A stretch of DNA of 64,000 nucleotides from Minisyncoccota bacterium (GTDB taxonomy: Bacteria > Patescibacteriota > Minisyncoccia > Phycocordibacterales > UBA2100). The translations under genes were made by a program, and so were the position numbers. The DNA lies in assembly GCA_031291875.1 (NCBI GenBank), contig JARLIE010000165.1, positions 1,119 through 65,118 of the forward strand, given 5' to 3'. Shown here piece by piece: positions 3,824 through 41,391 of the stretch (positions are counted from its first letter, which is position 1; each line of letters begins with the position of its first letter). The notes beneath the pieces are model-generated. The model saw only the letters and a list, made by a program, of their open reading frames with translations, had not been told where the DNA came from and did not search any database.

Positions 3824-4379
3824 GGCCAAACGGCTCGCTCGCCTTCTGTGCTTGTTCGAACGAAGCCAATTCGCCGCGGATTGTATCATATTCTGGCAAT
3901 CCCTGCGCGGAGGTTACGCCCAAATAAGCGAGCAATTCAGCCGTGGGACGGTAGAGGTATTCTCGCGCATCGTCCGGGTTGCCGGCGCGCTCAAGAAGGC
4001 CACGGGCAAGCAAATTGCGAACAGAGGTCGAGGAGTTAACGCCGCGGACATAGTCGATTTGCGCACGGGTCGATGGGCCGCGATACAAAATAATCGCGAG
4101 CACCTCAAGACCCGCCTCCCCTATTTCTTTACCGAGTTCCTTTTGGAAAGCCTTTTCGAGGGATTCGTGCGCCGCCGGCGCGACGGCAAGCGCGATTTCC
4201 GTATCAGTGGTAATCACAGTAATACCTCGTCCCGCAACAGCATCTCGTAAAGTCGTGACGGCAACGTCGAGCTCTTCCGGCTTACATTCTAGAAGCTGGA
4301 GTAATTTCTTTCTCGAGAGCGAACCTCCCTCTGCAAAAAGAAAAGCTTCGAGCTTGATCGCAAGTTCTGAGGTGTTCAT
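3783..4379 (-). CDS. scpB: Segregation and condensation protein B (ScpB).
   Basis: 198 aa with tandem winged-helix ScpB-like sequence (LEAFLFAEGGSLSRKKL ...). It overlaps scpA by 4 nt. Confidence 0.8.
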   Translation of the reverse strand: MNTSELAIKLEAFLFAEGGSLSRKKLLQLLECKPEELDVAVTTLRDAVAGRGITVITTDTEIALAVAPAAHESLEKAFQKELGKEIGEAGLEVLAIILYRGPSTRAQIDYVRGVNSSTSVRNLLARGLLERAGNPDDAREYLYRPTAELLAYLGVTSAQGLPEYDTIRGELASFEQAQKASEPFGHGNSTTAREPEGN

Positions 4380-5116
4380 ACGCCGAATTTTGGAACGCCG
4401 GAGACGTTCTCGAGTTCTATTGTAATATCACTGAATAATTTTTCCTGTGTGACACTTGCGTTGCCGTGACGCACGAGCTCCAGCATGGCCAAGAAGTGCA
4501 CGATCCGTGATTCCTTGTCAGCGCCGTGCGTGAGTTCGCTGAATCGGGTCCTAAATGCGCGCTCGAGACGAGTTTTCAAACTTTCGATTACATCTTCAAG
4601 GGCCAAAACGGGGGCGATGGCTGCCTGTATGAGGGCATCTGGTTTGGGCAATGTATTCAAAATTCTGCGTGCCGCAGAAAGCACTGTTGCGAGCGAGGTT
4701 TCCGACGGTGTAAAAACCGGCTGCCGATCCGGCGCTCGCTTGGGCAGTATGAGCGGCACCCTGCCCCACTCCTTGCGCAACGCCTTTGCCGCTTTACGGA
4801 AAATCGCGTACTGCGCGAGACGTCGTTCGAGTTCTTCCACCGACTCACGCTCCTCTTGTGAGAGCTCAAGAGTGGGCAGAAGCGTTCGGGATTTGATAAG
4901 GAGCAGTGTCGAGGCGACGAGAATAAACTGAGCGGTTTCGCCGAGCGGCAGCTCAGGAAGATTTTCAACGTATGCGAGGTATGCGTCGCAAACTTGCGAG
5001 AGTGAGATTTCGGACACCGGCATCTTTCTCTCCTCGATCAGGTTGAGTAGCGCTTCGAGCGGTCCTTGAAATTTTTCCGTTGCGAGCTCAAACCTGCCCG
5101 CGAAGTTTTCGGTCAT
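4376..5116 (-). CDS. scpA: Segregation and condensation protein A (ScpA, kleisin).
   Basis: 246 aa ScpA-like protein immediately upstream of scpB. Confidence 0.8.
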   Translation of the reverse strand: MTENFAGRFELATEKFQGPLEALLNLIEERKMPVSEISLSQVCDAYLAYVENLPELPLGETAQFILVASTLLLIKSRTLLPTLELSQEERESVEELERRLAQYAIFRKAAKALRKEWGRVPLILPKRAPDRQPVFTPSETSLATVLSAARRILNTLPKPDALIQAAIAPVLALEDVIESLKTRLERAFRTRFSELTHGADKESRIVHFLAMLELVRHGNASVTQEKLFSDITIELENVSGVPKFGV

Positions 5117-6444
5117 GCGTCGGTTCGATTTTCCGAAAGCGGGTAATCGATTCGGTTCATATCGCGTGGGAACATCGTCGCTTCACGAATGTTTTTGAGA
5201 CCGAGAATTTGCATCGTCATGCGCTCTGCGCCGAAGGCAAACCCACCTTCCGGCGGTACCCCGTAGCGAAACGCTTCGAGGAACATAGCGATCTTTTGGG
5301 GATCCATGTTCCAGAGCTGGACGTGCTCCATAAGTTGCTCGTAGTCGTTAATGCGACGGCCGCCCGAGAGCCACTCCACGCCTCGGCATAAAAGGTCCAT
5401 ACCTTCGTTAAACTCAGGCTGCTCGGGATTCGGATACACATAGAAGGGTTTCTGACGCGTCGGGTAGCCATAGACGTAGACGAAGTCCGAACCCGTTTCC
5501 TCTTTTACAAGCTCGCACAACCGACGCTCCTGTTCGGGATTCAGATCTTTGTCTTCAGGGACGCCAAGTTTTTGAAAAACTTCCGTGAGCGAATAGGTCG
5601 GGGTCTTCTCGAGCATTACCGGCACCGTTGTGCCAAGGAACTCGAGTTCTTTTGCACACTGCTCACTTACTCTCTGGAGGATAAAGCGCACGGTGGCTTC
5701 GGACATATCGCGCACATCGGTCCATGAATCGATGAAGCCCATTTCGGCGTCGAGCGAAACGATTTCCGTGAGGTGGCGGGTCGTTGTGCTCGGCTCCGCG
5801 CGAAAAACTTTGTTGACTGAAAATACGCGCTCGAACGCGGTCATAACGATCTGCTTGTAGAGCTGCGGAGATTGCGTGAGGTATGCCTTTTTGTCGAAGT
5901 ACTCTACCTGGAATACTTCCGCACCTCCTTCTGCGGTTGCTGGCGCTATCGCCGGGGCTTGGAATTCGAAGAAGCCTTCTTTCTTCATAAATTCCCGGAA
6001 CGAATCTATGATGACGGCCTGTACCTTGAAGATTGCCTGGAAGCGCGGGTGTCGCAGTGTCAGTGCGCGGTGGTCGAGCTCGGTGGGAAGATCAAGGTTG
6101 AAACCGTCGACCGACATGTCGAACGGAAGCGGCTCTGCCTTGGCGAGCACAGTGATCGAATCGATCGCGAGTTCAATATCTCCGTTTTCAACTTTCGCGT
6201 TTACGTTTTTCTCCGGTCGCGTGTTCACTATACCCTCGATCGAAAGCACGTATTCGACGCGAATATCCTTTGCACTTTCAAACGCGCCGCTTTTGGGTGG
6301 TACAACGGTTTGAATCGTGCCGCTGCGGTCGCGGATATCAAAAAAGACGAGCTTGCCCTGATCGCGACGAACGCTGACCCAGCCCTTGATCGTGACGCTT
6401 TCGCCGAGGTGCTGCTTGAGATCTTTAATGAGTGTTCTTTGCAT
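5113..6444 (-). CDS. aspS: Aspartyl-tRNA synthetase, archaeal/eukaryotic type (class IIb). Possibly non-discriminating.
   Basis: 443 aa with an N-terminal OB fold. Motifs: GGAEVFQVEYFDKKAYLTQSPQLYKQ and FRAEPSTTTRHLTEI. The length is typical of archaeal-type AspRS rather than the bacterial ~590 aa type. Confidence 0.75.
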   Translation of the reverse strand: MQRTLIKDLKQHLGESVTIKGWVSVRRDQGKLVFFDIRDRSGTIQTVVPPKSGAFESAKDIRVEYVLSIEGIVNTRPEKNVNAKVENGDIELAIDSITVLAKAEPLPFDMSVDGFNLDLPTELDHRALTLRHPRFQAIFKVQAVIIDSFREFMKKEGFFEFQAPAIAPATAEGGAEVFQVEYFDKKAYLTQSPQLYKQIVMTAFERVFSVNKVFRAEPSTTTRHLTEIVSLDAEMGFIDSWTDVRDMSEATVRFILQRVSEQCAKELEFLGTTVPVMLEKTPTYSLTEVFQKLGVPEDKDLNPEQERRLCELVKEETGSDFVYVYGYPTRQKPFYVYPNPEQPEFNEGMDLLCRGVEWLSGGRRINDYEQLMEHVQLWNMDPQKIAMFLEAFRYGVPPEGGFAFGAERMTMQILGLKNIREATMFPRDMNRIDYPLSENRTDA

Positions 6445-6445
6445 A

Positions 6446-7393
6446 CTAGTCGTTGAACGAGACGCCGATTTTTTGGCGTACGTCTTTCATTTTTGCCGAT
6501 GCGAGTTCGCGCGCTTTCTCGCTCCCCTCTTTTAGAACGCGAATAACCGTCTCATCCGATATGTTCGCGCGTCTCTCACGAATCGGCGCAACAAACGCCT
6601 CAATGTCCGCAATGAGCGCTTCTTTGCTGGCCTTGTAGTTGCCCTTATTCGCGGTGTACACAGGCGCGAGCTCTTCTCGGCTCTTGAAAAGCAAGTGGAT
6701 ATTGTAAACGTTGCTCGGGCTCTCGCCGCCGGAGTCGGTGATGATCGCCATAACCGCTTTTGTGATCTCGTCTTTTGTCGCAAAAAGCGGAATCGTATTG
6801 CCGTAACTCTTACTCATCTTTCTGCCGTCGGTGCCCGGCACCACGGCGACATCTTTTTGGATCATCTCTTTGGGCTCTTTGAACGTTTCGCCGAATGTCG
6901 TATTGAATTTATGTGCGATTTCACGGGCATATTCGATGTGCTGTCGTTGGTCTTCACCGACCGGGACGACGTCGGTATCGTAGAGAACGATGTCCGCCGC
7001 CATAAGTGTCGGATAGGTAAAGAGTCCGACAGTCGCTTCTTTTCCTTTTCCCGCCGTATCTTTGTACGCGTGTCCAAGTTCGAGTAGTGACATCGGGATG
7101 ATGGCGTTGAAGATCCACGAAAGTTCTGTGTGTTCGGAAACGTCGGATTGCTTGAATATCACGGCCTTTCTCGGGTCTACGCCGACGGCGAGGTAATCCC
7201 TCACGATGTCGATCGTGTTTTCGTGCATGAGCTTAGGGTCGCGGACGGTCGTGAGCGCGTGATAATCCACGGCGCATAGGAAACTCTCGTAGTCTTCATA
7301 CAAGTCCAAAAAGAGCTTCAGCGCGCCAAAATAGTTACCGATGTGAAGGGTACCCGAAGGCTGCAAGCCCGTAAAAAGCCGTTTTCGCGCCAT
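6446..7393 (-). CDS. trpS: Tryptophanyl-tRNA synthetase.
   Basis: N-terminal TGLQPSGTLHIGNY (HIGH region) and KMSKS motif. 315 aa. Confidence 0.9.
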   Translation of the reverse strand: MARKRLFTGLQPSGTLHIGNYFGALKLFLDLYEDYESFLCAVDYHALTTVRDPKLMHENTIDIVRDYLAVGVDPRKAVIFKQSDVSEHTELSWIFNAIIPMSLLELGHAYKDTAGKGKEATVGLFTYPTLMAADIVLYDTDVVPVGEDQRQHIEYAREIAHKFNTTFGETFKEPKEMIQKDVAVVPGTDGRKMSKSYGNTIPLFATKDEITKAVMAIITDSGGESPSNVYNIHLLFKSREELAPVYTANKGNYKASKEALIADIEAFVAPIRERRANISDETVIRVLKEGSEKARELASAKMKDVRQKIGVSFND

Positions 7394-7402
7394 ATTTCAC
7401 CA

Positions 7403-8974
7403 CTATACCGTATGAAGCTCGATTATGAAACGAGATCCCTTGTCCTTACCGTCGGATTCCGCCCAGATTTTGCCGCCCATGCCTTCGATGAAGGTTTTGG
7501 CTAAGTAGAGGCCCAAGCCAGTCCCTAAGAGGTTCATCTTTTGTGCATCAGCTCGCGAGAACTTTTGAAAAAGATTCGAAATGGTTTCCTGCGGAATGCC
7601 CACGCCGGTGTCCGCAACCACAACCCGTGCCATGCCATTGCGCTTTTCGATCGAGACAGTGACACCGCCCGATTTGGTGTATTTAGTGGAATTGTCGATC
7701 AGGTTGCCGACTACTTCACGGAGTTTCGCTTCGTCGGCGTAGGTCATAAGCCCTGGGAAATCTATTTTGACGTCGAGACCCAGCCCTTTTTCGCGCGCGT
7801 GCGCCTTAAAGCCTTCGCCGATGCTCGCGATGGTTTTGCCGAGATCGATTGCGGCGACGTTGTAAGAAATTTGCCCGAGCTCGAGCTTGGATTTGTTGAG
7901 GAATTCTGAAATCAGCGAAAGCACGGTGTCGCCGTTGACCTGGATCTTTTCGGCGATGTCGCGCACTTGGTCGCTCACCTCCCCTGCGGTACCGTCGGCA
8001 AGAAGCGACGCATAGCCGCGCATCGCGGTAATTGGATTGCGGATTTCATGCGAAGCGAAGGACATGAATTCCGATTTTTCGTTGGACAGCCGTTCGATTT
8101 CTTCGCGCTGCTCCACCTCTTTGACGACACTGCGAACCATGAGCACGGAAAACGCGAGCACGAGACAAAAGACGCTCGCGTGGAAAAGTATTTGGGTGCC
8201 GCCAGTGGAGAGTACGACTTCAAGGAGGGTTGCGACGGAAAGCAGGAACGCCACGACCTCGGTCGCAAGTACTTTTACGTTGAGGAGGTGGTAGCGGAAT
8301 ATCGCATAAGCGGTGCAGGCAATAAGCGGGAAAATAAACAGTGCGGAAAGCGGCAAAAAGCGCGCGTCGTTGAATCCGGCAGGCAGAATGATATTGAAGG
8401 TGACGATGCACAGGAACGTGAGAAGTGTTCCGATACACATCATCAAAACTTGTCGTCGCTCGACGTCTTTGCTATTGACGACTTTGCGCACCAAAGTGAC
8501 GATGCCGGCGATAATAAATGCAAGGACAAGGATAGCGAAGAGCGCGATGCCCGGGCCATTTTGAATTTGTGTCACGACACCGGTAGCCGAGGTTGCTTGT
8601 ACCTGATCGAAAACCAGTGGCGTGAGTGTGAGTAGCGAAGTCAGCGCAACGATCGGTATGAGCACGAATTTGTAGGTTTTCGAAAACGGCACTTGGGATT
8701 CGGGAAATACATAGCACAGTTGAAAGAACGTGAACGCGTGCCAACAACCAATGAAAATGATTGCACGTACGATCCAAAGCCCGATGAGAGACGGCGTCGA
8801 TTGGTATTGTGCGTAATTCGCTGCACTCCAGAGGATTGTAATTAGCGAGAATGCGAGAAACGTGCGATTCGTGATACTGGCCTGGTTGTTGAAATAAATC
8901 GTAAAACCTAACAGGCCGATGCCGGCGGCGGTGATCCCCACCGAAAGAAGATCGAGATTGAATGCGAATATCAT
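7403..8974 (-). CDS. Sensor histidine kinase with a polytopic (about 8 TM) N-terminal sensor domain. No adjacent response regulator.
   Basis: H-box FASHEIRNPITAMRGYASLL and a C-terminal HATPase_c region (GGVTVSIEKRNG...DTGVGIP...GTGLGL). The ORF extends to 9073; the Met at 8974 gives a 4-nt overlap with the upstream gene. Confidence 0.85.
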   Translation of the reverse strand: MIFAFNLDLLSVGITAAGIGLLGFTIYFNNQASITNRTFLAFSLITILWSAANYAQYQSTPSLIGLWIVRAIIFIGCWHAFTFFQLCYVFPESQVPFSKTYKFVLIPIVALTSLLTLTPLVFDQVQATSATGVVTQIQNGPGIALFAILVLAFIIAGIVTLVRKVVNSKDVERRQVLMMCIGTLLTFLCIVTFNIILPAGFNDARFLPLSALFIFPLIACTAYAIFRYHLLNVKVLATEVVAFLLSVATLLEVVLSTGGTQILFHASVFCLVLAFSVLMVRSVVKEVEQREEIERLSNEKSEFMSFASHEIRNPITAMRGYASLLADGTAGEVSDQVRDIAEKIQVNGDTVLSLISEFLNKSKLELGQISYNVAAIDLGKTIASIGEGFKAHAREKGLGLDVKIDFPGLMTYADEAKLREVVGNLIDNSTKYTKSGGVTVSIEKRNGMARVVVADTGVGIPQETISNLFQKFSRADAQKMNLLGTGLGLYLAKTFIEGMGGKIWAESDGKDKGSRFIIELHTV

Positions 8975-10017
8975 ACGGCGAGTAGCCCGGGAGGCTTTCT
9001 GTTCGATCGCGCGGTCGCGGGCCGGATCGGTTCCCCTATGCGCAGGAGCATGGCGATCGTCCCCTCTTTGCATTCGAAGGCGTCGTAAATCACGCGACGG
9101 GCTTCAAGAATGCGCGCCTGTACGTCCGGTTCAAGCCTGATGTTCGAACCGAGGCGTAGATACTCGGCAAGGTAGAGTAACCCGGCGAGCGGTTGCGCCG
9201 CGAAGTCATCGTTTACAACTTTGAGCCATGCGCGCTCAAACGCTCTACCTGCGCTAATGTAATCGCGAGATTCTGTTCGATCGATGCTGATCGCGACGAT
9301 CGCGCCAGAGGATGCATAAACTGCGGCATTACTCTTTGCGGCCATGGAGGCGAAGCCAATCGCGTTCAGTGCTCGCATAATCGGCCAATACTTGATGAGT
9401 TTGAAAAGAAACTGGATCGGAGGTGGTAATTCCGTGGTTTTGATATACAAACCGGGCTCGCCATTTTTGTTCTTATGCGCGTCCCATAGAATGCTCTGGA
9501 AGAAAAAATAGTGCAGCTCCTTCGTTCGCAACGCGGCCTCTTCCATCATGCTGACGGCGTTCGCGATCGCTTCAATACGTTTACGATCAGTAACAACGTT
9601 TATGTGTGCACTGCCGACTTCTAGTGCACGCAGCCCATCAAGTATCTCTTCAGAGATCTCCGTTTTATAGGCGCCTCGATTGGTGTGCCGCTTTGCAACG
9701 GCGTCGATCAGTGGATGGTTCGGGCGAATATGACCAACAAATTTCACGATTGCCGCAGCATGCGTGTCGAGCGGCGACGATACATCGCACAAGAGCCCCT
9801 CGTGTTCGGCTGCGATCAATAGGTTTTCGATTACTGCGCCGAGAGAAAGATAGGTTCCTCGAGATTCAACATTGAGGATAGCGTGATCGCGTTCCGGATG
9901 CACGAATATATCGATTTCGTCGTCGTGCGCGCGGAACGACCACGGCTGTGAGTTGTCGCCGGAGGGAGCTTGTACTGCTGCACGAAGGATGCGTTCGAGA
10001 CGATCCTGTTCGATCAT
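8971..10017 (-). CDS. Tandem nitroreductase-fold (FMN-dependent oxidoreductase-like) protein.
   Basis: N-terminal RILRAAVQAPSGDNSQPWSF (nitroreductase signature). A second half begins at KRHTNRGAY. 348 aa, about 1.5-2x the length of a single nitroreductase domain. Confidence 0.65.
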   Translation of the reverse strand: MIEQDRLERILRAAVQAPSGDNSQPWSFRAHDDEIDIFVHPERDHAILNVESRGTYLSLGAVIENLLIAAEHEGLLCDVSSPLDTHAAAIVKFVGHIRPNHPLIDAVAKRHTNRGAYKTEISEEILDGLRALEVGSAHINVVTDRKRIEAIANAVSMMEEAALRTKELHYFFFQSILWDAHKNKNGEPGLYIKTTELPPPIQFLFKLIKYWPIMRALNAIGFASMAAKSNAAVYASSGAIVAISIDRTESRDYISAGRAFERAWLKVVNDDFAAQPLAGLLYLAEYLRLGSNIRLEPDVQARILEARRVIYDAFECKEGTIAMLLRIGEPIRPATARSNRKPPGLLAV

Positions 10018-11126
10018 AATTCGAGACCAATTTTTCCGAGGAAATCTTTGCGAGCAGCTTCGCGATCCGCTCGCCCGTCGGCATAGCTGGGATCCAATAT
10101 CGCGTCGAAATTAACTTCGCATTTTGCGCTCATAAGCGGTCGCTTGAGTGCGAGCTGCTTGAGGGCGTAGGCGATCGCGACGCCAGAGAGCGTGGCGGCG
10201 TCCACCAGTTGCGGCCACGAGTAGATGGTCTTTCCCACTTCGAGCAGTGAAGACATCATACGTGGAACAATAAAACCGGGACCTGCGATTTTCGTAGCTA
10301 GTTTCGGCAGCTCCGTTGGCGGAAACGATTTGAATTCGTCGATAGTGATGTCACCGATCGCTCCGTTGAAAAGCGATGCGTTTTTATCCAGATCAAATCG
10401 ATCGGCTTCAAAGATAATGTTGTCGCCGTTATCTGTTGCCATAATGACCGGAATCCCTCGGGCGCGCGCTTCCAAGCGAAGGCGAATCTTCATCTCGAGG
10501 TTGTCTGTCTCTTCGACAAGCACGTCTATATCCGACAAGAATGCATCCATATTCTCGGCTGAGACACCGTCTGCAAATGCTTCCACGTGCGCGTACGGGT
10601 CGAGCTGATAGATGTATTCGCGCGCAAGATCGCACTTCTTGCGGCCGACGGCGAGAAAGTCAAAGCGAATGCGATTGAGGTTGGAGGGCGAAACAGTGTC
10701 TGGATCGGCGATTTTTATTCGTTGTCCGCCGCCGAGGTGGGCGAACGTAAAGAGTCCGTGGCTGCCGACGGATAATCCTGCGTAGGCGACGCGCAGTCCA
10801 TAGAGTGCCTGCTGCTCTTCGGCAGTGATGATATTTCGATTGCGCGCGGTGCGGAGCTCCAGGTGTTCGGCCTCGGGCAAGTAGTGTGCGAGCACACCGT
10901 TCCAGGGGAAGTAAAACCATTCGCCGAAGGATGGGTTTGCTCGCTTATACTCTTCCGTAAAGGCGGCAAGCTCCGCTTTGTACTCACGGACAAATTTGAA
11001 TCGCGGGTTGCGAATCAAGAAAAGATCTTCCAGTAAATCGTCGTACGCGTCTATGATGTGCGTTGGTTCGGTTCGTTCTTTAAAGGCTTCTAACGATTCC
11101 CCTGAAGGGTTATATCTCTCCGGCAT
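10014..11126 (-). CDS. E1-like adenylyltransferase (ThiF/MoeB/HesA family) with a ~90 aa N-terminal extension.
   Basis: Rossmann motif LRVAYAGLSVGSHG and ADPDTVSPSNLNRI, equivalent to the ThiF VDxDxVxxSNLNRQ region. An RxR..ITAEEQQAL lead-in resembles the MoeB/ThiF start. A C-terminal CxxC is absent. Confidence 0.7.
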   Translation of the reverse strand: MPERYNPSGESLEAFKERTEPTHIIDAYDDLLEDLFLIRNPRFKFVREYKAELAAFTEEYKRANPSFGEWFYFPWNGVLAHYLPEAEHLELRTARNRNIITAEEQQALYGLRVAYAGLSVGSHGLFTFAHLGGGQRIKIADPDTVSPSNLNRIRFDFLAVGRKKCDLAREYIYQLDPYAHVEAFADGVSAENMDAFLSDIDVLVEETDNLEMKIRLRLEARARGIPVIMATDNGDNIIFEADRFDLDKNASLFNGAIGDITIDEFKSFPPTELPKLATKIAGPGFIVPRMMSSLLEVGKTIYSWPQLVDAATLSGVAIAYALKQLALKRPLMSAKCEVNFDAILDPSYADGRADREAARKDFLGKIGLEL

Positions 11127-11153
11127 GCGGAAATTGTAGCATTTGTTTTACCG

Positions 11154-12692
11154 CTACTGAGTACGAATTACCCACTTTTGCTTGATGTCGCGACGAAAGT
11201 ACGTCGGATCCTCGTGCGGCCAAAAGAGTAGGCGGGGTATCGCGCGATCTCCCAGGAAGGTAAAGAGTTCCTGGAACTCGCCATTTTTCTCGCAAAGATT
11301 TTTGACGATCTCACTCGAGAGCTGCGCGCTGAAAGCCTGGCTTGCCTCTTTGCCATCATGCATCTCGATATTGATCTCTAAGTATTGGTCATTCGCATCG
11401 CTGAATTTCGTCATGAGTGTAAAGCGGCCGGTCAGGAATGCAGCGTATGGTTCCTGGAGCAGAGTTTCGCGAATTGTTTCGGGATAAATCTGTAAGCCGT
11501 AGAGGGTCGTGGAAAGATCCGAGCGCTCATACACGTAGACGAACGGAAGTTTCGCGAGTTTCGAATCGATTTTGTTAGCACGCATCTTCTTTTCCAAATC
11601 GATTCCGTGATTCTCGAAGATGTCGGTGATTTGCTTGAATGAAAACACCCCGCCATTATCGCCGATCGAATAGCGGCAAAGCGGCATCGCGCTGTCCCCT
11701 GTCACATACAGCTGCCCATCAACACATTCGAAATGAGTGAATTCCGACGTGTACTGGGCGAGTGTCGGCGTCTTTGAAATATCGCCAAAAAGGGCTTTAA
11801 AGAGCGCCGGTTTCTCTGCTGCGATTCGTCTTATCAAGATAGAGAGCGGCGTTTCGGCGGCCATCGTACCGAGATCAGCACTGCCGTAGATGTTCATCGT
11901 ATCGGTCAGCGGATTTTTGATGTTCGTTTTTGCAATAACGTAGTCGCGGAATTGCTCGGTGAATGCCTCGGCGGCAAATACAATACCGAACTTGTACTTC
12001 GAGAGTGAGATCCCTGTGGCGATTGCGTCGTCGATCACGTCTTTAATGAATGGCGGATAGCCGGCAAGAATAACCTGGTCGTAATTCGGAGCGAGCTGTT
12101 CAAGCGCTTTTAGAATTTCACTCTTGTTGATGCCCGGCGTTATGACGGATATCGGATGGCCTCGCCGACCCAGCAGTTGAAATGCTTGGTAGGTCAATAG
12201 CCCGCCAATCCATACACCCATACCAAAACAGACAATGATAAGCGTTGGTTTCGATTTTGAGAGCGAGCTTTGTAGAAAAAATCGCTCGTGAATTAACGCC
12301 GATTGCTCATCCACGGTAAATGAGCGCGCGAAGTAAAACGGCTTTCCTGTGGAACCTGACGTCGAGGTCATGACGTGCGGTACAGCAAGCGTGCCTCCCC
12401 AAAATAGTTCCTTGTAGGGATACGCGCGCAAGTAGGAGTCCTTACTCATGACCGGCACTCGGTCGAGTTCGGCATCATTCTTTATGGTTGCCGCAACAAT
12501 AGAGCGGCTCTTGAGGAATTTTTTGTATGCCGGCACTTCAGCCGCCATCCGCTTGAAAAGACTCAAAACGGGGGAGGGGCTTTCCTGAAGCGTTTTCGTA
12601 GCGACCGGCTTCTTTTTTGGAGCTAGTGTTCGACTCATACTGACGGAGAAATTATAACACGGATACTGCCTCCTTGTCGAGTACCTGCTCAA
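11154..12692 (-). CDS. Adenylate-forming enzyme of the phenylacetate-CoA ligase / coenzyme F390 synthetase / CapK family.
   Basis: P-loop-like AMP motif MTSTSGSTGKPFYF. PaaK-like N-terminal region (VPAYKKFL...DRVPVMSKDSYLRAYP). 512 aa; the true start may be the internal Met (MAAEV...). Confidence 0.65.
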   Translation of the reverse strand: MSRYSTRRQYPCYNFSVSMSRTLAPKKKPVATKTLQESPSPVLSLFKRMAAEVPAYKKFLKSRSIVAATIKNDAELDRVPVMSKDSYLRAYPYKELFWGGTLAVPHVMTSTSGSTGKPFYFARSFTVDEQSALIHERFFLQSSLSKSKPTLIIVCFGMGVWIGGLLTYQAFQLLGRRGHPISVITPGINKSEILKALEQLAPNYDQVILAGYPPFIKDVIDDAIATGISLSKYKFGIVFAAEAFTEQFRDYVIAKTNIKNPLTDTMNIYGSADLGTMAAETPLSILIRRIAAEKPALFKALFGDISKTPTLAQYTSEFTHFECVDGQLYVTGDSAMPLCRYSIGDNGGVFSFKQITDIFENHGIDLEKKMRANKIDSKLAKLPFVYVYERSDLSTTLYGLQIYPETIRETLLQEPYAAFLTGRFTLMTKFSDANDQYLEINIEMHDGKEASQAFSAQLSSEIVKNLCEKNGEFQELFTFLGDRAIPRLLFWPHEDPTYFRRDIKQKWVIRTQ

Positions 12693-13704
12693 TGGCCCCT
12701 ACAACTGCCGCCATATGCTCCGGTGCCGGGATCGCGAAACGCAGCGTTTCGCGCAGTAGTTCCTTCGCCGTATCGTCCCATGTCTTTCGCTCCCCCGCGC
12801 TCACTCGTATGCCAGCACTTGCCAAGGATTCGCAAATTTCATTTGCACGAGAATGGCGAGTCAAAATAAAATTACAAGACGATGGATAGACGAGCAGGTG
12901 AGGAAAGCGAGCAAGCGCCGTTGCGAAAACAGCACGCTGCTCGATGATGAGTGCTTTGCGCTGCTGGAGCTCACTAACTCGAGAAAGGACTATGTTTGCC
13001 GCATAGACGCTCGGCCCCGGAATGATCCAGGGCAAGGTGCCAAATAGATCTGAACGTAGTTCTTCAGCGATTTCGCGGCTCGTGATGGCGTATCCGACCC
13101 GAATCCCGGGGACGCCGAATGCTTTGGATAATGTACGCAGCACGATAACCGGTTGCTGCGCAACGGCTTGCAGAGCGCTCGAGCCTCCATATTCACCGTA
13201 GGCCTCATCACTAACGACTAACACACCGACCTCACGGGCTGCTGAGAGTATCTGGGAAAACGCACTATCTCCTAACGTGCTGCCGAGCGGATTGTTGGGT
13301 TCGCACAAGAACACAACGTCGACTTCCTTGTTGCGGATGCATTGTAGGGTTTCTTCGAGCGGAAATACGAATGTCCCGTCTTGCTCGCGGTAGTACAAGC
13401 GCACCGTTTCGAGCGGCGTCTCCATCAATACTTTTTCATAGCCGGAAAAGGTCGGCAAAATGAGGAGCGTGCGATAGCGACGCTTCGCGCAATACCGAAC
13501 GGTGGCTCGAATGGCTTCGTCAGAACCAGGTGTTAAGCACACGCTCTCTTGCGGAACGCCGGCGTACGTCGCGATATTTGCCGTGAGCTCGTCGTAGGAT
13601 GGATAGGTGGAGAACGCGGAGCGCGGCATGTTGCGCAAGAGCGCAAGCGTGTCGTCGTCGAGTAACCAATAGCTCTCGTTCAGATCGAGCGGAATGATTT
13701 CCAT
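12652..13704 (-). CDS. PLP-dependent class I/II aminotransferase (HisC/CobD-like).
   Basis: LDLNESYW start region, CEPNNPLG motif, and LRTLSKAFGVPGIRVGY (PLP lysine). The ORF extends to 13836; the Met at 13704 gives a 4-nt overlap with the upstream gene. Confidence 0.75.
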   Translation of the reverse strand: MEIIPLDLNESYWLLDDDTLALLRNMPRSAFSTYPSYDELTANIATYAGVPQESVCLTPGSDEAIRATVRYCAKRRYRTLLILPTFSGYEKVLMETPLETVRLYYREQDGTFVFPLEETLQCIRNKEVDVVFLCEPNNPLGSTLGDSAFSQILSAAREVGVLVVSDEAYGEYGGSSALQAVAQQPVIVLRTLSKAFGVPGIRVGYAITSREIAEELRSDLFGTLPWIIPGPSVYAANIVLSRVSELQQRKALIIEQRAVFATALARFPHLLVYPSSCNFILTRHSRANEICESLASAGIRVSAGERKTWDDTAKELLRETLRFAIPAPEHMAAVVGAIEQVLDKEAVSVL

Positions 13705-13706
13705 GA

Positions 13707-14195
13707 TCACGATCTGGCAAATGCGATACCGATATAGGCAACAATCAGCCACCAGAGCTCGTAGGAGGATCCGAAAATATTCTGTGTTTGCGAGCTGAAG
13801 TGCCAAATGGACGCGAGTGATCCGACCTGCATCCAAATACAGACGAGCACGACCGTCGTTGAAACGCCGACGAGAATTCCTGCAAGCGGAGAGCTCGATT
13901 CGGAAAAGCTCATAGTTGCTCGAATGAAAAGTATGAGCAGGATGATTTCAATCGCTAGGAAGACGAGTGCTTGTGGCAACCCGGCGTGGAATTGGCGCAC
14001 GATTGAGCCGAGCAAAAACGCGTTCGGTGCAACCGAAAAGAGAGTCACCGCTACGGGAAGCGAGAGCGAAAGCGCTGTGGCGATACTGGTGCCGCGCAGC
14101 ATGCTGAAAATAGTAATAAGAATGGCGATCGAACCGATAATGATCCAATCCGAAGGAACCCCGGAGGCAATCTGGGTCATCGACTGAAAATCCAT
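13707..14195 (-). CDS. Small polytopic membrane protein (about 4 TM), unknown function.
   Basis: 162 aa, hydrophobic throughout. It starts 9 nt downstream of the dnaJ stop. Confidence 0.5.
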   Translation of the reverse strand: MDFQSMTQIASGVPSDWIIIGSIAILITIFSMLRGTSIATALSLSLPVAVTLFSVAPNAFLLGSIVRQFHAGLPQALVFLAIEIILLILFIRATMSFSESSSPLAGILVGVSTTVVLVCIWMQVGSLASIWHFSSQTQNIFGSSYELWWLIVAYIGIAFARS

Positions 14196-14204
14196 ATGCG
14201 CGAA

Positions 14205-15278
14205 TTATAACCCCTCCTTTCGTAGCTCTTCGATCGCTTCTTTTGCTTTGCGGGATAACTTCTTCGGGAATTGTATGTCGATGCGAACCATGAGGTCGCC
14301 GCGACTGCCGCGACCGTACGGAATGCCTTTGCCACGCACTCGAATGAGCTCGCCGTGTTCGACGCCTGCTGGTACGTTGATTTTTTCTTCACCGTCCAAT
14401 GTTGGAATAGTGTAGGTGCCGCCCAAAAGCGCGTCGCTGAGCTTGACCGAAAGCGACGTCGTGAGCGTGTTGCCGTCACGGGTGAATCGCGTGTCTTTGC
14501 GAACGTGGAGCTTTACATACAGATCGCCCGCGCTTCCTGCGGAAGTGGCTTCTCCTCTCCCCGGCATGCGAATCATTTCTCCGTCGTCGACACCGGCTGG
14601 AACGACAATGTGAATCTCCTCTTCGCGCTTCGCGATACCCTCTCCGTGGCAATGTTCGCACGGGGTCTCTGGCACCTCGCCCTTGCCTTTGCAGCGCGGA
14701 CACAAGCGCTCTTGGGTGAATGTCCCGAAGAGAGAGTTGCGTGTTTCGCGGATCGAGCCCTTGCCATTGCAGCTGGTGCACGTGGTCATCTTAGAACCCG
14801 ATTTTGCTCCCGTGCCCGCACACACCTGACAAACCCCCATCTTGGAGATAAGTACGCGACGTTCGGTACCGAAAACAGCCTCCTTGAACGAAAGCTCAAT
14901 ATCGATGGATATATCACGTCCGCGATTGGCGCGTTGCCCACCTTGACCGAAGAATTCAGAGAAAATGTCACCGAGATCAAACTCGAACGCTTGACCGTTG
15001 CCGCCAAATCCCGCGCCGAACGGCGCTCCTTGGGAGAAGTCGAAACCTCCGAAGCCTTGCCCGCCGCCTCCGGCGAATGTCTTGCCGTAGGTGTCGTATT
15101 CGGCCCGCTTCTTTTTGTCTGAAAGGACAGCGTAGGCTTCGCTTGCTTCTTTGAACTTTGCCTCGTCGCCACCTTTTTTGTCTGGGTGATATTTTTGAGC
15201 AAGCTTGCGAAATGCTTTCTTGATTTCTTCCTCGGTAGCGCTTTTCGGAACCCCGAGAATGTCGTAGTAGTTTTTCAT
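14205..15278 (-). CDS. dnaJ: Chaperone DnaJ (Hsp40).
   Basis: J-domain (YYDILGV...HPDK), a G/F-rich linker, and four CxxCxGxG zinc-finger repeats. Confidence 0.92.
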
Positions 15279-15350
15279 AGCGAATCAGTATTGTACTGTA
15301 AACCACTTCCAAAGCAAAAGACGCCTCGTTTCGAGACGTCTTTTGCCTTT

Positions 15351-17219
15351 TTATTGTTGCGGGGGCGTTTGGTCTTGGGGCGGCTGCTCGCCTTGGTTAC
15401 CTCCGGTGGAAGAACCACCTTGGCCGGACATCGACTGTCCGATCGTGCTCATTGCGCTTGAGAGCTGTTCGGACGCAGTTTTGATCGCGTTTGCGTCCGT
15501 GCCATTGCGAGCCGCTTTCGCAGCATCAAGCTTTTCCTGCACGTTCTTTTTGATGTCTTCGCTCACTTTATCGCCATATTCGCGGAGCGCTTTCTCTGCC
15601 GCATAGATGTTTTGGTCGGCGCTATTTTGCGCCTCTACCAACTCTTTCTTTTCGCGGTCGGTGTCGGCGTTTTTCTCAGCATCTTGGCGCATTTTTTCGA
15701 TATCGGTTTCCGAGAGACCGGAAGAGCCTTCGATGCGGATGGACTGTTCTTTACCGCTCGTCTTGTCCTTTGCCTTGACGGTGAGGATGCCGTTCGCGTC
15801 GATGTCGAAGGTTACCTCAACCTGCGGAACTCCTCGTGGAGCCGGCGGAATGCCGTCCAAATTGAAACGTCCGAGTGATTTGTTGTCTGCAGCCATCGGG
15901 CGCTCTCCTTGCACGACGTGGATCTCAACAGACGGTTGATTGTCGGCAGCAGTTGAGAAGACCTGTGACTTCGCTGTCGGAATAGTGGTGTTGCGTTCGA
16001 TAAGGCGTGTGGCGACGCCGCCCATCGTCTCGATACCCAGCGAAAGCGGGATCACGTCGAGAAGCAATACGTCCTTTACGTCACCCTGCAAAATGCCGCC
16101 TTGGATTGCCGCGCCGATAGCAACAACTTCATCAGGGTTGACGCTCATGTTGGGCTTTCGGCCGAAGTATTCCTGCACGGCTTTTTGAATCGCGGGCATG
16201 CGAGTCTGTCCACCCACGAGGATGATCTCGTTGAGTTCACCGACCTTAAAAGGCGATGCGTCGATCGCGCGCTTCGTGATCATGAGCGCCCGCTCGACGA
16301 ACTCGCGGGAGAGCTCTTCGAGCTTTGCGCGGGTGAGTTTGACAAGGAGATGCTGAGGACCGGCAGCGGTGGAGGTAATGAACGGAATGTTCACCTCTGT
16401 TTCGAGTGCGCTCGAGAGTTCGATCTTTGCTTTCTCCGCGGCTTCGTCGAGTCGCTGACGCGCGAGAGGATCAGTGCGCACATCGATGCCGGATTCCTTT
16501 TTGAATTCATCGGCGAGCCAATCCATGATCTTTTGGTCGATGTCTTTGCCACCCAAGTGCGCGTCACCGTCGGTCGATCGCACCTCGATCACATCGTCTC
16601 CCACCTCCAAGACGGAAATGTCGAACGTACCACCGCCGAAGTCGAAGACGGCAATCTTTTCGTTCTTCTTTTTGTTGAAACCGTACGCGAGCGCGGCGGC
16701 TGTCGGTTCGTTGATGATGCGCTTAACGTCGAGGCCGGCAATTTTTCCGGCGTCGCGGGTCGCCTGACGCTGGGTGTCGTTGAAGTAGGCAGGGACTGTG
16801 ATCACTGCTTCTGTAACAGTTTCGCCAAGGCGCGCTTCTGCGTCTTGCTTCAGTTTCTGTAAAATCATCGCGGAAACCTCTTCCGGGCGGTACCATTTGT
16901 CCGCCATCTTGACCTCGATACCGCTGTTATCCGTCTTCCTGACTTCAAACGGAATAGATTTGATGTCTTTTTGCACACCCGCCTCGTCAAAGGTGTGCCC
17001 AATGAAGCGCTTTATTTGGTAGATGGTGTTTTGCGGATTGGTCACTGCTTGTCGGCGCGCCAATTGACCAACAAGTCGCTCACCACCCTTAGAGATGGCG
17101 ACGATCGACGGTGTCGTGCGTCCACCCTCTGCGTTTTCGATGATATGAGGCTCACCTCCCGTGACATATGCCACTGCGGAGTTGGTTGTGCCCAGATCGA
17201 TACCGATGATTTTAGCCAT
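15351..17219 (-). CDS. dnaK: Chaperone DnaK (Hsp70).
   Basis: [18 protein letters not shown] and the full 622 aa Hsp70 architecture. Confidence 0.95.
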
Positions 17220-41126: not shown

Positions 41127-41219
41127 ATGCTTGTGCTAAGCGGGTAATGTCTGAGGCGGGAGAAAACACAAAGCCCGCCACCAGGAGGCCTTGCGGCCAC
41201 ATAAGAGTTTCCCCTTATG

Positions 41220-41262
41220 ACGTACAGCACGCCCTGAATGACGGGTTTTCTGTGCTGTACGT
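41220..41262. promoter_or_regulatory. Perfect 11-bp inverted repeat (candidate operator) in a divergent promoter region.
   Basis: ACGTACAGCAC-N21-GTGCTGTACGT between the secreted-protein operon (minus) and the wHTH regulator (plus). Confidence 0.5.
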
Positions 41263-41391
41263 TTTCGCGCCATGCCACCGATTTCTCGATGGTTTAGGCA
41301 CTAGCCTTGCGGCTCGATATTGGTTGTGTGTGATAACGATAGCATAGCGAGCCGTCGGCATAAAGTGCGCTCCGTGATAAAGTCAGCGTTA

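Follow-up and report, generated by a model that had tools for sequence, protein, structure and literature searches.

What does a two-lobed nitroreductase-like protein do beside an E1-like enzyme? This question is raised by a gene at positions 8971-10017 of a 64,000-nucleotide stretch of DNA from a Minisyncoccota bacterium (assembly GCA_031291875.1, contig JARLIE010000165.1, positions 1,119 to 65,118; the whole stretch is called the window below). An earlier note, made from the sequence alone, described the gene product as a tandem, duplicated nitroreductase (NTR) fold with an atypical second half. It suggested either a SagB/McbC-type azoline dehydrogenase or the functionally uncharacterised Acg/Rv3131 group, and expected either assignment next to an E1-like enzyme to be informative. 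The open reading frame (ORF) is real and lies on the minus strand, which that note had not named. Its product, hereafter the oxidase, is identical in sequence to a protein annotated at NCBI as hypothetical (P0001) in a Candidatus Pacebacteria metagenome-assembled genome (MAG). It seems, with a probability of about 0.6 judged from homology and gene neighbourhood, that the oxidase acts as an FDO-type desaturase alongside a TrzS-like cyclase and that the two serve an oxazolone-like pathway. The cassette around it appears to be a variant oxazolone-synthetase-like system, widespread in Patescibacteria and previously undescribed.

Sequence motifs and predicted fold of the oxidase

The oxidase begins with AVQAPSGDNSQPW, and AVQAPSGDNSQPWSF occupies its residues 14-28, KRHTNRGAY residues 109-117 and EVGSAHINVV residues 133-142. 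As the earlier note had it, the protein starts on the AxxAPSxxNxQPW signature without the usual RRSxR in front: none was found before residue 14, and an upstream extension of the ORF is impossible. The second half was also correctly placed from KRHTNRGAY, where the RxxxR pattern is kept and no APS motif occurs after residue 114. In an alignment of 53 homologues, 26-62% identical, the residues A17, P18, S19, N22, Q24, P25, G60, N65, R110, R114, G189, G257, W264, R326 and G328 are invariant, which indicates that the motifs are under selection and not due to chance. The APS motif presumably takes part in FMN binding, as in the structures of classical NTRs. The family is large: at E <= 1e-30 it comprises 3,208 clusters (50% identity), a number that rises to 13,457 when the threshold is relaxed to E <= 0.001.

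The Pfam Nitroreductase match covers residues 2-28 only. In an AlphaFold2 model built on the homologue alignment (pLDDT 95.1, pTM 0.93), residues 1-100 form four strands and a long central helix, and residues 110-330 a second four-strand set with a central helix, broken by a helical block at approximately residues 145-235. The sole full-length match found by Foldseek in the PDB was MsAcg (2YMV; E 1.4e-15, TM 0.73/0.77), which is 18% identical to the oxidase. The remaining matches were single-domain nitroreductases, IYD, BluB and FbiB-C, and covered about half of the model (TMq ~0.35). When the family profile was compared with PDB sequences, the APS helix and the 'GAxxxN' helix of classical NTRs aligned with the N-lobe and their '(R/v)GY' strand with the C-lobe, while the RRTDR of MsAcg aligned with the RHTNR of the oxidase.

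Classical NTRs have subunits of approximately 200-240 aa with an N-terminal RRSxR/RHSxK and the APS motif in one lobe. The oxidase is built differently: its Arg motif lies 90 residues downstream of the APS region, in the other lobe, and only the 30-residue APS region aligns with classical NTRs. In the classical homodimer (NfsB type), one subunit contributes its Arg-rich N-terminus and its C-terminus to each flavin site, and the other its APS motif. According to the model, the oxidase is a monomeric pseudo-dimer, with two lobes in one chain mimicking such a homodimer. The N-lobe keeps the APS half-site only and the C-lobe the Arg half-site only, and therefore a single flavin site remains. This predicted FMN site would be formed by APSxxNxQPW of the N-lobe and RHTNR of the C-lobe. 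The helical insertion is probably a lid over the flavin site, by analogy with the lid of TyzC and Acg. Both these proteins are described as monomers with one flavin site and an insertion resembling a lid (PMC10404671; for the lid, also PMC11841060).

No similarity between the halves of the oxidase was detected by BLASTP of one half against the other (E 16) or by hhalign of the lobe profiles (probability 0.03), so that a duplication can be spoken of at the level of the fold only. Thus, the tandem fold of the earlier note stands as a two-lobed architecture, supported by the AlphaFold2 model and the 2YMV match. Nor is the second half atypical, as complementary degeneration of the lobes with one FMN site is the norm of the subgroup that includes TyzC and Acg (PMC10404671).

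Family assignment of the oxidase

Oxazolone synthetases came to light in Proteobacteria and mycobacteria in the years 2020-2025, and the published hypotheses assign them a role in signalling or stress adaptation. The prototype, OxzAB, was discovered by De Rond et al. (10.1101/2020.06.11.147165). In TrzS, which is Rv1355c, the ThiF domain performs ATP-dependent cyclisation of N-acyl-tryptophan, abolished by the D217A substitution, and the FDO domain performs O2-dependent desaturation, with loss of flavin in R540A and Q651A; the product is N-acyl tryptazolone, and the Mycobacterium smegmatis orthologue contains FMN (Kleetz et al., PMC12856293). TrzS must cyclise before it desaturates, but this order is not binding for TyzBC (PMC12856293). 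The latter is a split form found in Mycobacterium tuberculosis, which comprises TyzB (ThiF) and TyzC, a stand-alone FDO of 372 aa (Grigg et al., PMC10404671). The FDO proteins have been divided into FDO-A, which are associated with ThiF and make oxazolones, and FDO-B, including Acg, Rv3127 and Rv3131, which belong to the DosR regulon and have no known function (PMC10404671). In OxzAB, TyzACB and TrzAS, the substrate is supplied by an acyl-CoA-using N-acyltransferase similar to FeeM or acyl-homoserine lactone (AHL) synthases (10.1101/2020.06.11.147165; PMC10404671; PMC12856293).

Two NCBIfam models of ThiF-fused proteins matched the oxidase with their C-terminal halves, both below cutoff: PRK14851 (positions 323-670 of 679) with 172.6 bits and the Rv1355c family (positions 373-713 of 722) with 161.6 bits. 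The Acg family model (NF047509) aligned over its full length with 134 bits, below its cutoff of 199. The same ranking was found for all 53 relatives, where the ThiF-fused models outscored the Acg model, and the best E-values among the family members were 2.6e-79 for PRK14851, 1.4e-68 for Rv1355c and 3.2e-53 for Acg. Judging by these profile scores, the oxidase is a new and distant member of the known FDO subgroup, and it stays below the curated cutoffs for Acg as well as for Rv1355c. The suggested Acg/Rv3131 assignment is right in so far as MsAcg is the closest solved fold, but the Acg score is below cutoff and the ThiF-fused models score higher. The description of this group as uncharacterised does not apply to its ThiF-associated branch (TyzC, TrzS, OxzB), whose members are O2-dependent desaturases of oxazolone biosynthesis. 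Consequently, 'Acg-like nitroreductase' is a wrong functional label where a TrzS-type ThiF gene adjoins. Identity with BluB was rejected (16 bits on 28 residues), as was identity with IYD; the structures of both cover half of the oxidase model.

The ThiF-like partner

Directly upstream of the oxidase gene lies a gene encoding a ThiF-like protein, and its TGA overlaps the oxidase ATG by 4 nt (ATGA); the two genes would be coupled in translation. On the 722-position Rv1355c (TrzS) model, the ThiF protein matched positions 27-341 with 253.9 bits, and no other ThiF/MoeB/TcdA/E1 model gave more than 84 bits. An alignment of 46 sequences demonstrated conservation of at least 95% for G117xSVGS122, D141, D143, N149, N151, R152, K164 and D208, and contained no conserved Cys. 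The D208 residue, located in 'TDN', appears to be of the same residue class as D217 of TrzS. The kept ATP/Mg residues and the absence of a conserved Cys agree with an adenylating cyclase rather than with an E1 activating ubiquitin-like proteins or transferring sulfur. A role in tRNA modification was rejected by the scores (TcdA 23 bits vs 254 for the TrzS model), and a role in ubiquitin-like protein activation by the lack of the Cys.

Each of the two proteins matches its own half of the Rv1355c model, in the same order, and together they thus correspond to a split Rv1355c-like protein. By this homology, the pair can be considered a split TrzS/OxzB-like (TyzB/TyzC-like) module. The expectation that the E1-like neighbour would be informative was justified, as the ThiF partner proved decisive for the assignment.

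The cassette in Patescibacteria

The gene neighbourhood was surveyed in one genome per species, giving 80 loci in which ORFs were called, clustered and compared with the window. Forty-nine loci are of the Patescibacteria type, namely the window and 48 others, which are labelled as Paceibacterota, Kaiserbacteria, Magasanikbacteria, Doudnabacteria, Nomurabacteria, Liptonbacteria, Minisyncoccia and, in some cases, Saccharibacteria or mis-labelled bins. Several MAG labels look unreliable: a locus labelled 'uncultured Gammaproteobacteria' (L042) matches a Paceibacter locus (L038) gene by gene, L040, L012 and others look similar in this respect, and numerous cassette loci carry the label 'uncultured Candidatus Saccharibacteria' from one bulk pipeline.

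The ThiF and oxidase genes occur together in all 49 loci. In four of these they are fused, ThiF then NTR, and such fusions are also found in further database proteins. There are two main gene orders, ligase-ThiF-oxidase and ThiF-ligase-oxidase, and one locus has the ligase inverted downstream. Because the gene orders vary and the surroundings of the cassette are very different from locus to locus, inherited synteny by itself does not explain the linkage. The 27-31%-identical relatives from Proteobacteria, Planctomycetes and other groups have neither the ligase nor the kinase, and adjoin FeeM or Acetyltransf_5/Autoind_synth proteins, ThiF and often an O-methyltransferase. Judging by this gene content, their clusters are of the canonical oxazolone type. 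A search of the literature for this cassette in Patescibacteria, or for oxazolones in the candidate phyla radiation, found nothing relevant.

The ligase of the cassette, an adenylate-forming enzyme of the PaaK family, has no Pfam match. It matches PDB entry 2y4o with E 6e-7 and retains the adenylate-forming motifs (TSxSGSTGKP and others). With its AlphaFold2 model (pLDDT 87.7), Foldseek found PaaK1/2 and BT_0428 first, and then AjiA1, NatL2 and ClxA. The gene was found in 45 of the 49 loci; in the other four, the contig is cut upstream. NatL2 and ClxA are PaaK-type ligases which make an ester or amide straight from the acyl-adenylate, independently of CoA (PMC7204872; PMC9400959).

The slot upstream of the ligase holds one of three types of deaminating enzyme in 36 of the 49 loci. 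Eight loci, including the window, possess a HisC/CobD-like aminotransferase. An ELFV dehydrogenase occupies the slot in 19 loci, with the tryptophan dehydrogenase ScyB as the best model (264-278 bits vs about 60 for glutamate dehydrogenase), and an aromatic amino-acid lyase in nine, with the flexirubin tyrosine ammonia-lyase FlxA as the best model (583-606 bits vs 465-475 for histidine ammonia-lyase). From these family assignments, all three enzymes would strip the amino group from an aromatic amino acid and leave a carboxylic acid. The most divergent ligases, 30-36% identical to that of the window, are those of the lyase-type loci, which is what a different acid substrate would predict. The features of the window are listed in Table 1.

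Table 1. Features of the cassette and of the oxidase in the window.
Feature	Position	Strand	Size or residues	Basis
7TM (seven-transmembrane) sensor histidine kinase	7403-8974	minus	523 aa	Pfam HisKA_7TM + HisKA + HATPase_c; NCBI 523 aa (P0241)
Oxidase ORF, the gene under study	8971-10017	minus	348 aa	ATG start
R326-I-G328, last beta-strand, conserved C-terminal NTR motif	9034-9042	minus	326-328	R326 and G328 invariant; aligns with '(R/v)GY' strand of classical NTRs
C-lobe helical insertion	9313-9585	minus	~145-235	helices in AlphaFold2 model
RHTNR, C-lobe counterpart of the RRSxR phosphate-binding motif	9676-9690	minus	110-114	R110 and R114 invariant; aligns with MsAcg RRTDR
N-lobe flavin-site motif APSGDNSQPW	9940-9969	minus	17-26	invariant; aligns with APS of classical NTRs and MsAcg
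ThiF-like ATP-dependent cyclase	10014-11126	minus	370 aa	Pfam ThiF; directly upstream of oxidase
PaaK-family adenylate-forming ligase	11154-12692	minus	ORF 512 aa (NCBI: 494 aa, start 12638)	weak NCBIfam PaaK/F390/FlxY matches
HisC/CobD-like class I/II aminotransferase	12652-13836	minus	maximal ORF 394 aa	Pfam Aminotran_1_2; hisC 178 and CobD 163 bits, both below cutoff

Proposed pathway

A specific route through the PaaK-family ligase is put forward tentatively, and is regarded as possible but somewhat doubtful. It is proposed since the acyltransferase is absent and the CoA-independent PaaK-type ligases provide a precedent. In the window, the HisC-like aminotransferase would deaminate an aromatic amino acid to an arylpyruvate. 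Elsewhere, the ScyB-like tryptophan dehydrogenase would give indolepyruvate and the FlxA-like tyrosine ammonia-lyase coumarate. The ligase would then adenylate the acid and use it to acylate an amino acid on its amino group, yielding an N-acyl amino acid. By homology to TrzS and TyzB, the ThiF protein would adenylate the free carboxylate, and the amide oxygen would close the oxazolone. In a further step, the FMN oxidase would desaturate the C-alpha/C-beta bond and be reoxidised by O2, as homology to TyzC and to the FDO domain of TrzS suggests.

Several points weigh against such an oxazolone-like pathway. The FeeM/GNAT/AHL-synthase-like N-acyltransferase, which is the defining third component of the known oxazolone clusters, is absent from all 49 loci. 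To our knowledge, no PaaK-family enzyme N-acylates an amino acid for a pathway of this kind, and the ligase could make a CoA thioester or other product instead of an amide. A single common acyl donor is not implied, because the aminotransferase and the dehydrogenase give 2-oxo acids and the lyase an acrylate. The scores of the oxidase and the ThiF protein on the Rv1355c model (161.6 + 253.9 bits) are below its equivalog cutoff of 476 (NF005901), and the pair is a distant relative of that protein, not an orthologue. Besides, many Patescibacteria live in low-oxygen habitats, which is awkward for an O2-dependent step.

Alternative explanations

It is possible, but unlikely, that the ligase, ThiF protein and oxidase make another class of product. 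This could be some other heterocycle, closed by the ThiF protein after it adenylates an arylpyruvoyl or cinnamoyl conjugate. Otherwise, the ThiF protein could activate the C-terminus of a peptide or protein, similarly to MccB/PaaA, with the oxidase dehydrogenating the scaffold. The missing acyltransferase and the unusual acid donors (2-oxo acids or acrylates) would fit such a system, as would the varying accessory genes, among them unknown proteins of 313 aa and 245 aa and fusions with methyltransferases and glycosyltransferases. ThiF-family enzymes are also known to catalyse many carboxylate-activating reactions (10.1101/2020.06.11.147165). However, the genes are tight and overlapping, with no room for a precursor-peptide ORF, the score of the ThiF protein on the TrzS model is three times that of the best competing ThiF family, and the nearest relatives outside Patescibacteria are located in canonical N-acyl amino acid/oxazolone clusters. 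Similarly, the resemblance to MsAcg, the only full-length structural match, and the full-length match to the Acg model below its cutoff might point to an Acg-like (FDO-B) stress protein which binds FMN or sequesters flavin and has no catalytic link to ThiF. This resemblance cannot separate the FDO-A from the FDO-B reading, because 2YMV is also the closest solved structure of the TrzS FDO domain (PMC12856293). Such a protein is quite improbable here, since the Acg model stays under the ThiF-fused models in all 53 relatives and the linkage to ThiF is found in 49 of 49 loci, with fusions, whereas the FDO-B genes of M. tuberculosis are not near the oxazolone genes (PMC10404671).

The proposal of a SagB/McbC-type azoline dehydrogenase, which would place the oxidase in a pathway of ribosomally synthesised and post-translationally modified peptides of the thiazole/oxazole-modified microcin (TOMM) type with the E1-like protein as a docking or cyclodehydratase partner, is effectively refuted. 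McbB-like E1 homologues and McbC-like NTR-fold dehydrogenases do co-occur in TOMM clusters. Meanwhile, neither the SagB-type model TIGR03605 nor any other SagB model matched the oxidase (E <= 0.01) or its 53 relatives (E <= 0.001), no McbC-type or ThcOx structure was among the top 50 Foldseek matches, and no YcaO or recurrent precursor-peptide gene was found in the 80 loci, where the packed, overlapping genes leave no space for small ORFs. An ordinary NAD(P)H:flavin nitroreductase or NADH oxidase with a housekeeping function in redox balance or detoxification can hardly be credited either. The Pfam match to residues 2-28 and the weak similarity of this 30-residue stretch to NADH oxidase structures are what it can account for. 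Classical NTRs align to this 30-residue APS motif only and cover half of the model, so that the best match to a housekeeping FMN reductase or NADH oxidase, named in the earlier note as the outcome that would speak against its view, was not obtained. The oxidase also has no N-terminal RRSxR, its architecture is two-lobed and monomeric, and MsAcg is unable to use NAD(P)H (PMC11841060). The oxazolone-like pathway remains the preferred reading of the cassette.

The 7TM sensor kinase

The kinase ATG overlaps the oxidase stop codon by 4 nt (ATGA). A mechanical ORF list gives the kinase as 7403-9073 (minus strand), 556 aa, with a 103-nt overlap with the oxidase gene. The N-termini of homologues (M..LDLLSVGI...) and the 523-aa NCBI annotation place the true start at 8974. 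The kinase directly follows the oxidase in 47 of the 48 other Patescibacteria loci; in the remaining one, the contig ends at the oxidase gene. Its start is usually -4 to +45 nt from the oxidase stop, or 700-1000 nt where one extra gene is inserted.

The linkage was also tested in reverse, through the gene context of eight homologues of the kinase sensor domain. Three (33-41% identity) belong to the same cassette, one is a second kinase directly downstream of a cassette having its own kinase and response regulator, and one is of this second-kinase type without a cassette. The last three (25-27% identity) are located directly downstream of genes for the synthesis of hydrophobic small molecules. 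The contexts of these distant homologues are L083:4918-7569, L084:3930-7575 and L088:4092-8703. The partners are a terpene synthase with a GGR-like FAD reductase in one case, a UbiA prenyltransferase with a GGR-like reductase (4-nt overlap with the kinase) in another, and an amine-oxidase-like protein, a CMAS-like methyltransferase and a UbiA fragment in the third. By analogy, Patescibacteria HisKA_7TM kinases may be generally paired with the synthases of their lipophilic ligands.

A response regulator is adjacent in nine of the 49 loci; none was found in the 64-kb window by tblastn with the cassette-linked regulator. No NTR-kinase fusions were found among long homologues, and a literature search on HisKA_7TM ligands found nothing relevant. 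The gene order suggests one more, speculative idea, namely that the cassette might be a signal-synthase/receptor module. It would make a hydrophobic, oxazolone-like molecule from scavenged aromatic amino acids with ATP and O2 alone, without acyl-CoA, and the downstream 7TM kinase would be the receptor. At present this seems rather unlikely. Oxazolones have already been speculated to be signals (PMC12856293; PMC10404671). If true, the candidate phyla radiation would have its first candidate system of small-molecule signalling, and oxazolones their first candidate receptor.

Neighbouring genes and other observations

In the window, the cassette is part of a housekeeping run at 4376-17219 (minus strand), which consists of dnaK, dnaJ, the cassette, trpS, aspS of the non-discriminating type and scpA. 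Upstream dnaJ is present in 11 loci and downstream trpS in nine. An ORF of 162 aa lies between dnaJ and the cassette (13707-14195, minus strand) and has no Pfam match; a similar small ORF was found in L002, L003, L004 (2800-3309), L009, L015 and L072. A protein in a related position (c17) is a multi-pass membrane protein, also without a Pfam match, for which a role as cassette exporter is one possibility.

In five loci (L006:8124-9068, L021:4202-5143, L007, L024 and L043), the gene of a conserved protein of about 313 aa, which matches neither Pfam nor NCBIfam models, is inserted between those of the oxidase and the kinase. Judging by length and position, it is apparently fused to the oxidase C-terminus in proteins of about 670 aa (L010, P0368/P0381/P0438). 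It is probably an accessory tailoring enzyme; its GSGG motif recalls methyltransferases using S-adenosylmethionine. In three other loci (L025:2618-3355, L028 and L050), the same slot holds a protein of about 245-270 aa with no family match. The relatives of the oxidase include multidomain proteins with the arrangements glycosyltransferase-NTR-glycosyltransferase-NTR (P0324, 1593 aa), ThiF-NTR-NTR (P0333, 1062 aa), NTR-NTR (P0325, 750 aa) and methyltransferase-NTR (P0329, 685 aa), which could be real fusions or read-through gene calls. Elsewhere in the window, a LOOT RNA (Rfam RF03000), which is a structured RNA, was detected at 41186-41300 (minus strand), between two 254-aa ORFs; it matches the full-length model with 80.3 bits, compared to the gathering threshold of 46.4.

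Significance

A five-gene small-molecule cassette across many Patescibacteria lineages is unexpected, because these bacteria have very small genomes and little biosynthetic capacity. The cassette offers two testable handles. One is the proposed route to an N-acyl amino acid, which relies on a ligase and apparently not on acyl-CoA, and the other is the invariant link to a membrane sensor kinase, which hints at the purpose of oxazolone-like molecules. For annotation, the gain is that three 'hypothetical proteins' of many MAGs become a defined enzyme set.

Comparison with known systems

In McbBCD and SagBCD, a five-membered heterocycle is formed and oxidised by an E1-like protein working together with an NTR-fold FMN dehydrogenase, a logic that resembles the one proposed for the cassette. 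However, both depend on a YcaO cyclodehydratase and on a precursor peptide of ribosomal origin, neither of which is found in the cassette loci. In its gene layout, the cassette also resembles CqsA/CqsS and LuxM/LuxN, where the synthase gene adjoins a polytopic membrane kinase that senses the product; for the HisKA_7TM kinase, in contrast, ligand sensing is hypothetical. NatL2, AjiA1 and ClxA, PaaK-family ligases which make ester or amide bonds without CoA and are among the best structural matches of the cassette ligase after PaaK, are a precedent for direct coupling of aryl acids to a nucleophile. They differ in joining aminohydroxybenzoates towards benzoxazoles and in having amidohydrolase partners instead of ThiF and FDO, and their identity to the ligase is approximately 14-18%.

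MsAcg (2YMV) and Acg, Rv3127 and Rv3131 of M. tuberculosis have the APS motif, RxxxR and lid in the order in which the oxidase has its APS motif, RxxxR and putative lid, but the Acg-type proteins are DosR-regulated and not linked to ThiF. The similarity with TrzS/OxzB is that the window genes align in order with both halves of the Rv1355c model, the Mg/ATP aspartate of ThiF is conserved, and some Patescibacteria relatives are fused, ThiF then FDO. In the window, however, the genes are split, with a 4-nt overlap, and do not reach the equivalog cutoff, a ligase takes the place of TrzA/OxzA as partner, and the host belongs to Patescibacteria instead of Actinomycetota or Proteobacteria. TyzB/TyzC (Rv2338c/Rv2337c) of the N-acyl tyrazolone pathway are described as a separate ThiF gene adjoining an FDO of about 350-370 aa in one operon, like the pair in the window. 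They differ from the cassette in having the FeeM/AHL-synthase-like TyzA where the cassette has a PaaK-family ligase, and in the absence of the linked sensor kinase that the cassette possesses. What is new is the context: a ligase and a deaminating enzyme instead of the acyl-CoA acyltransferase, and an invariant link to a 7TM kinase.

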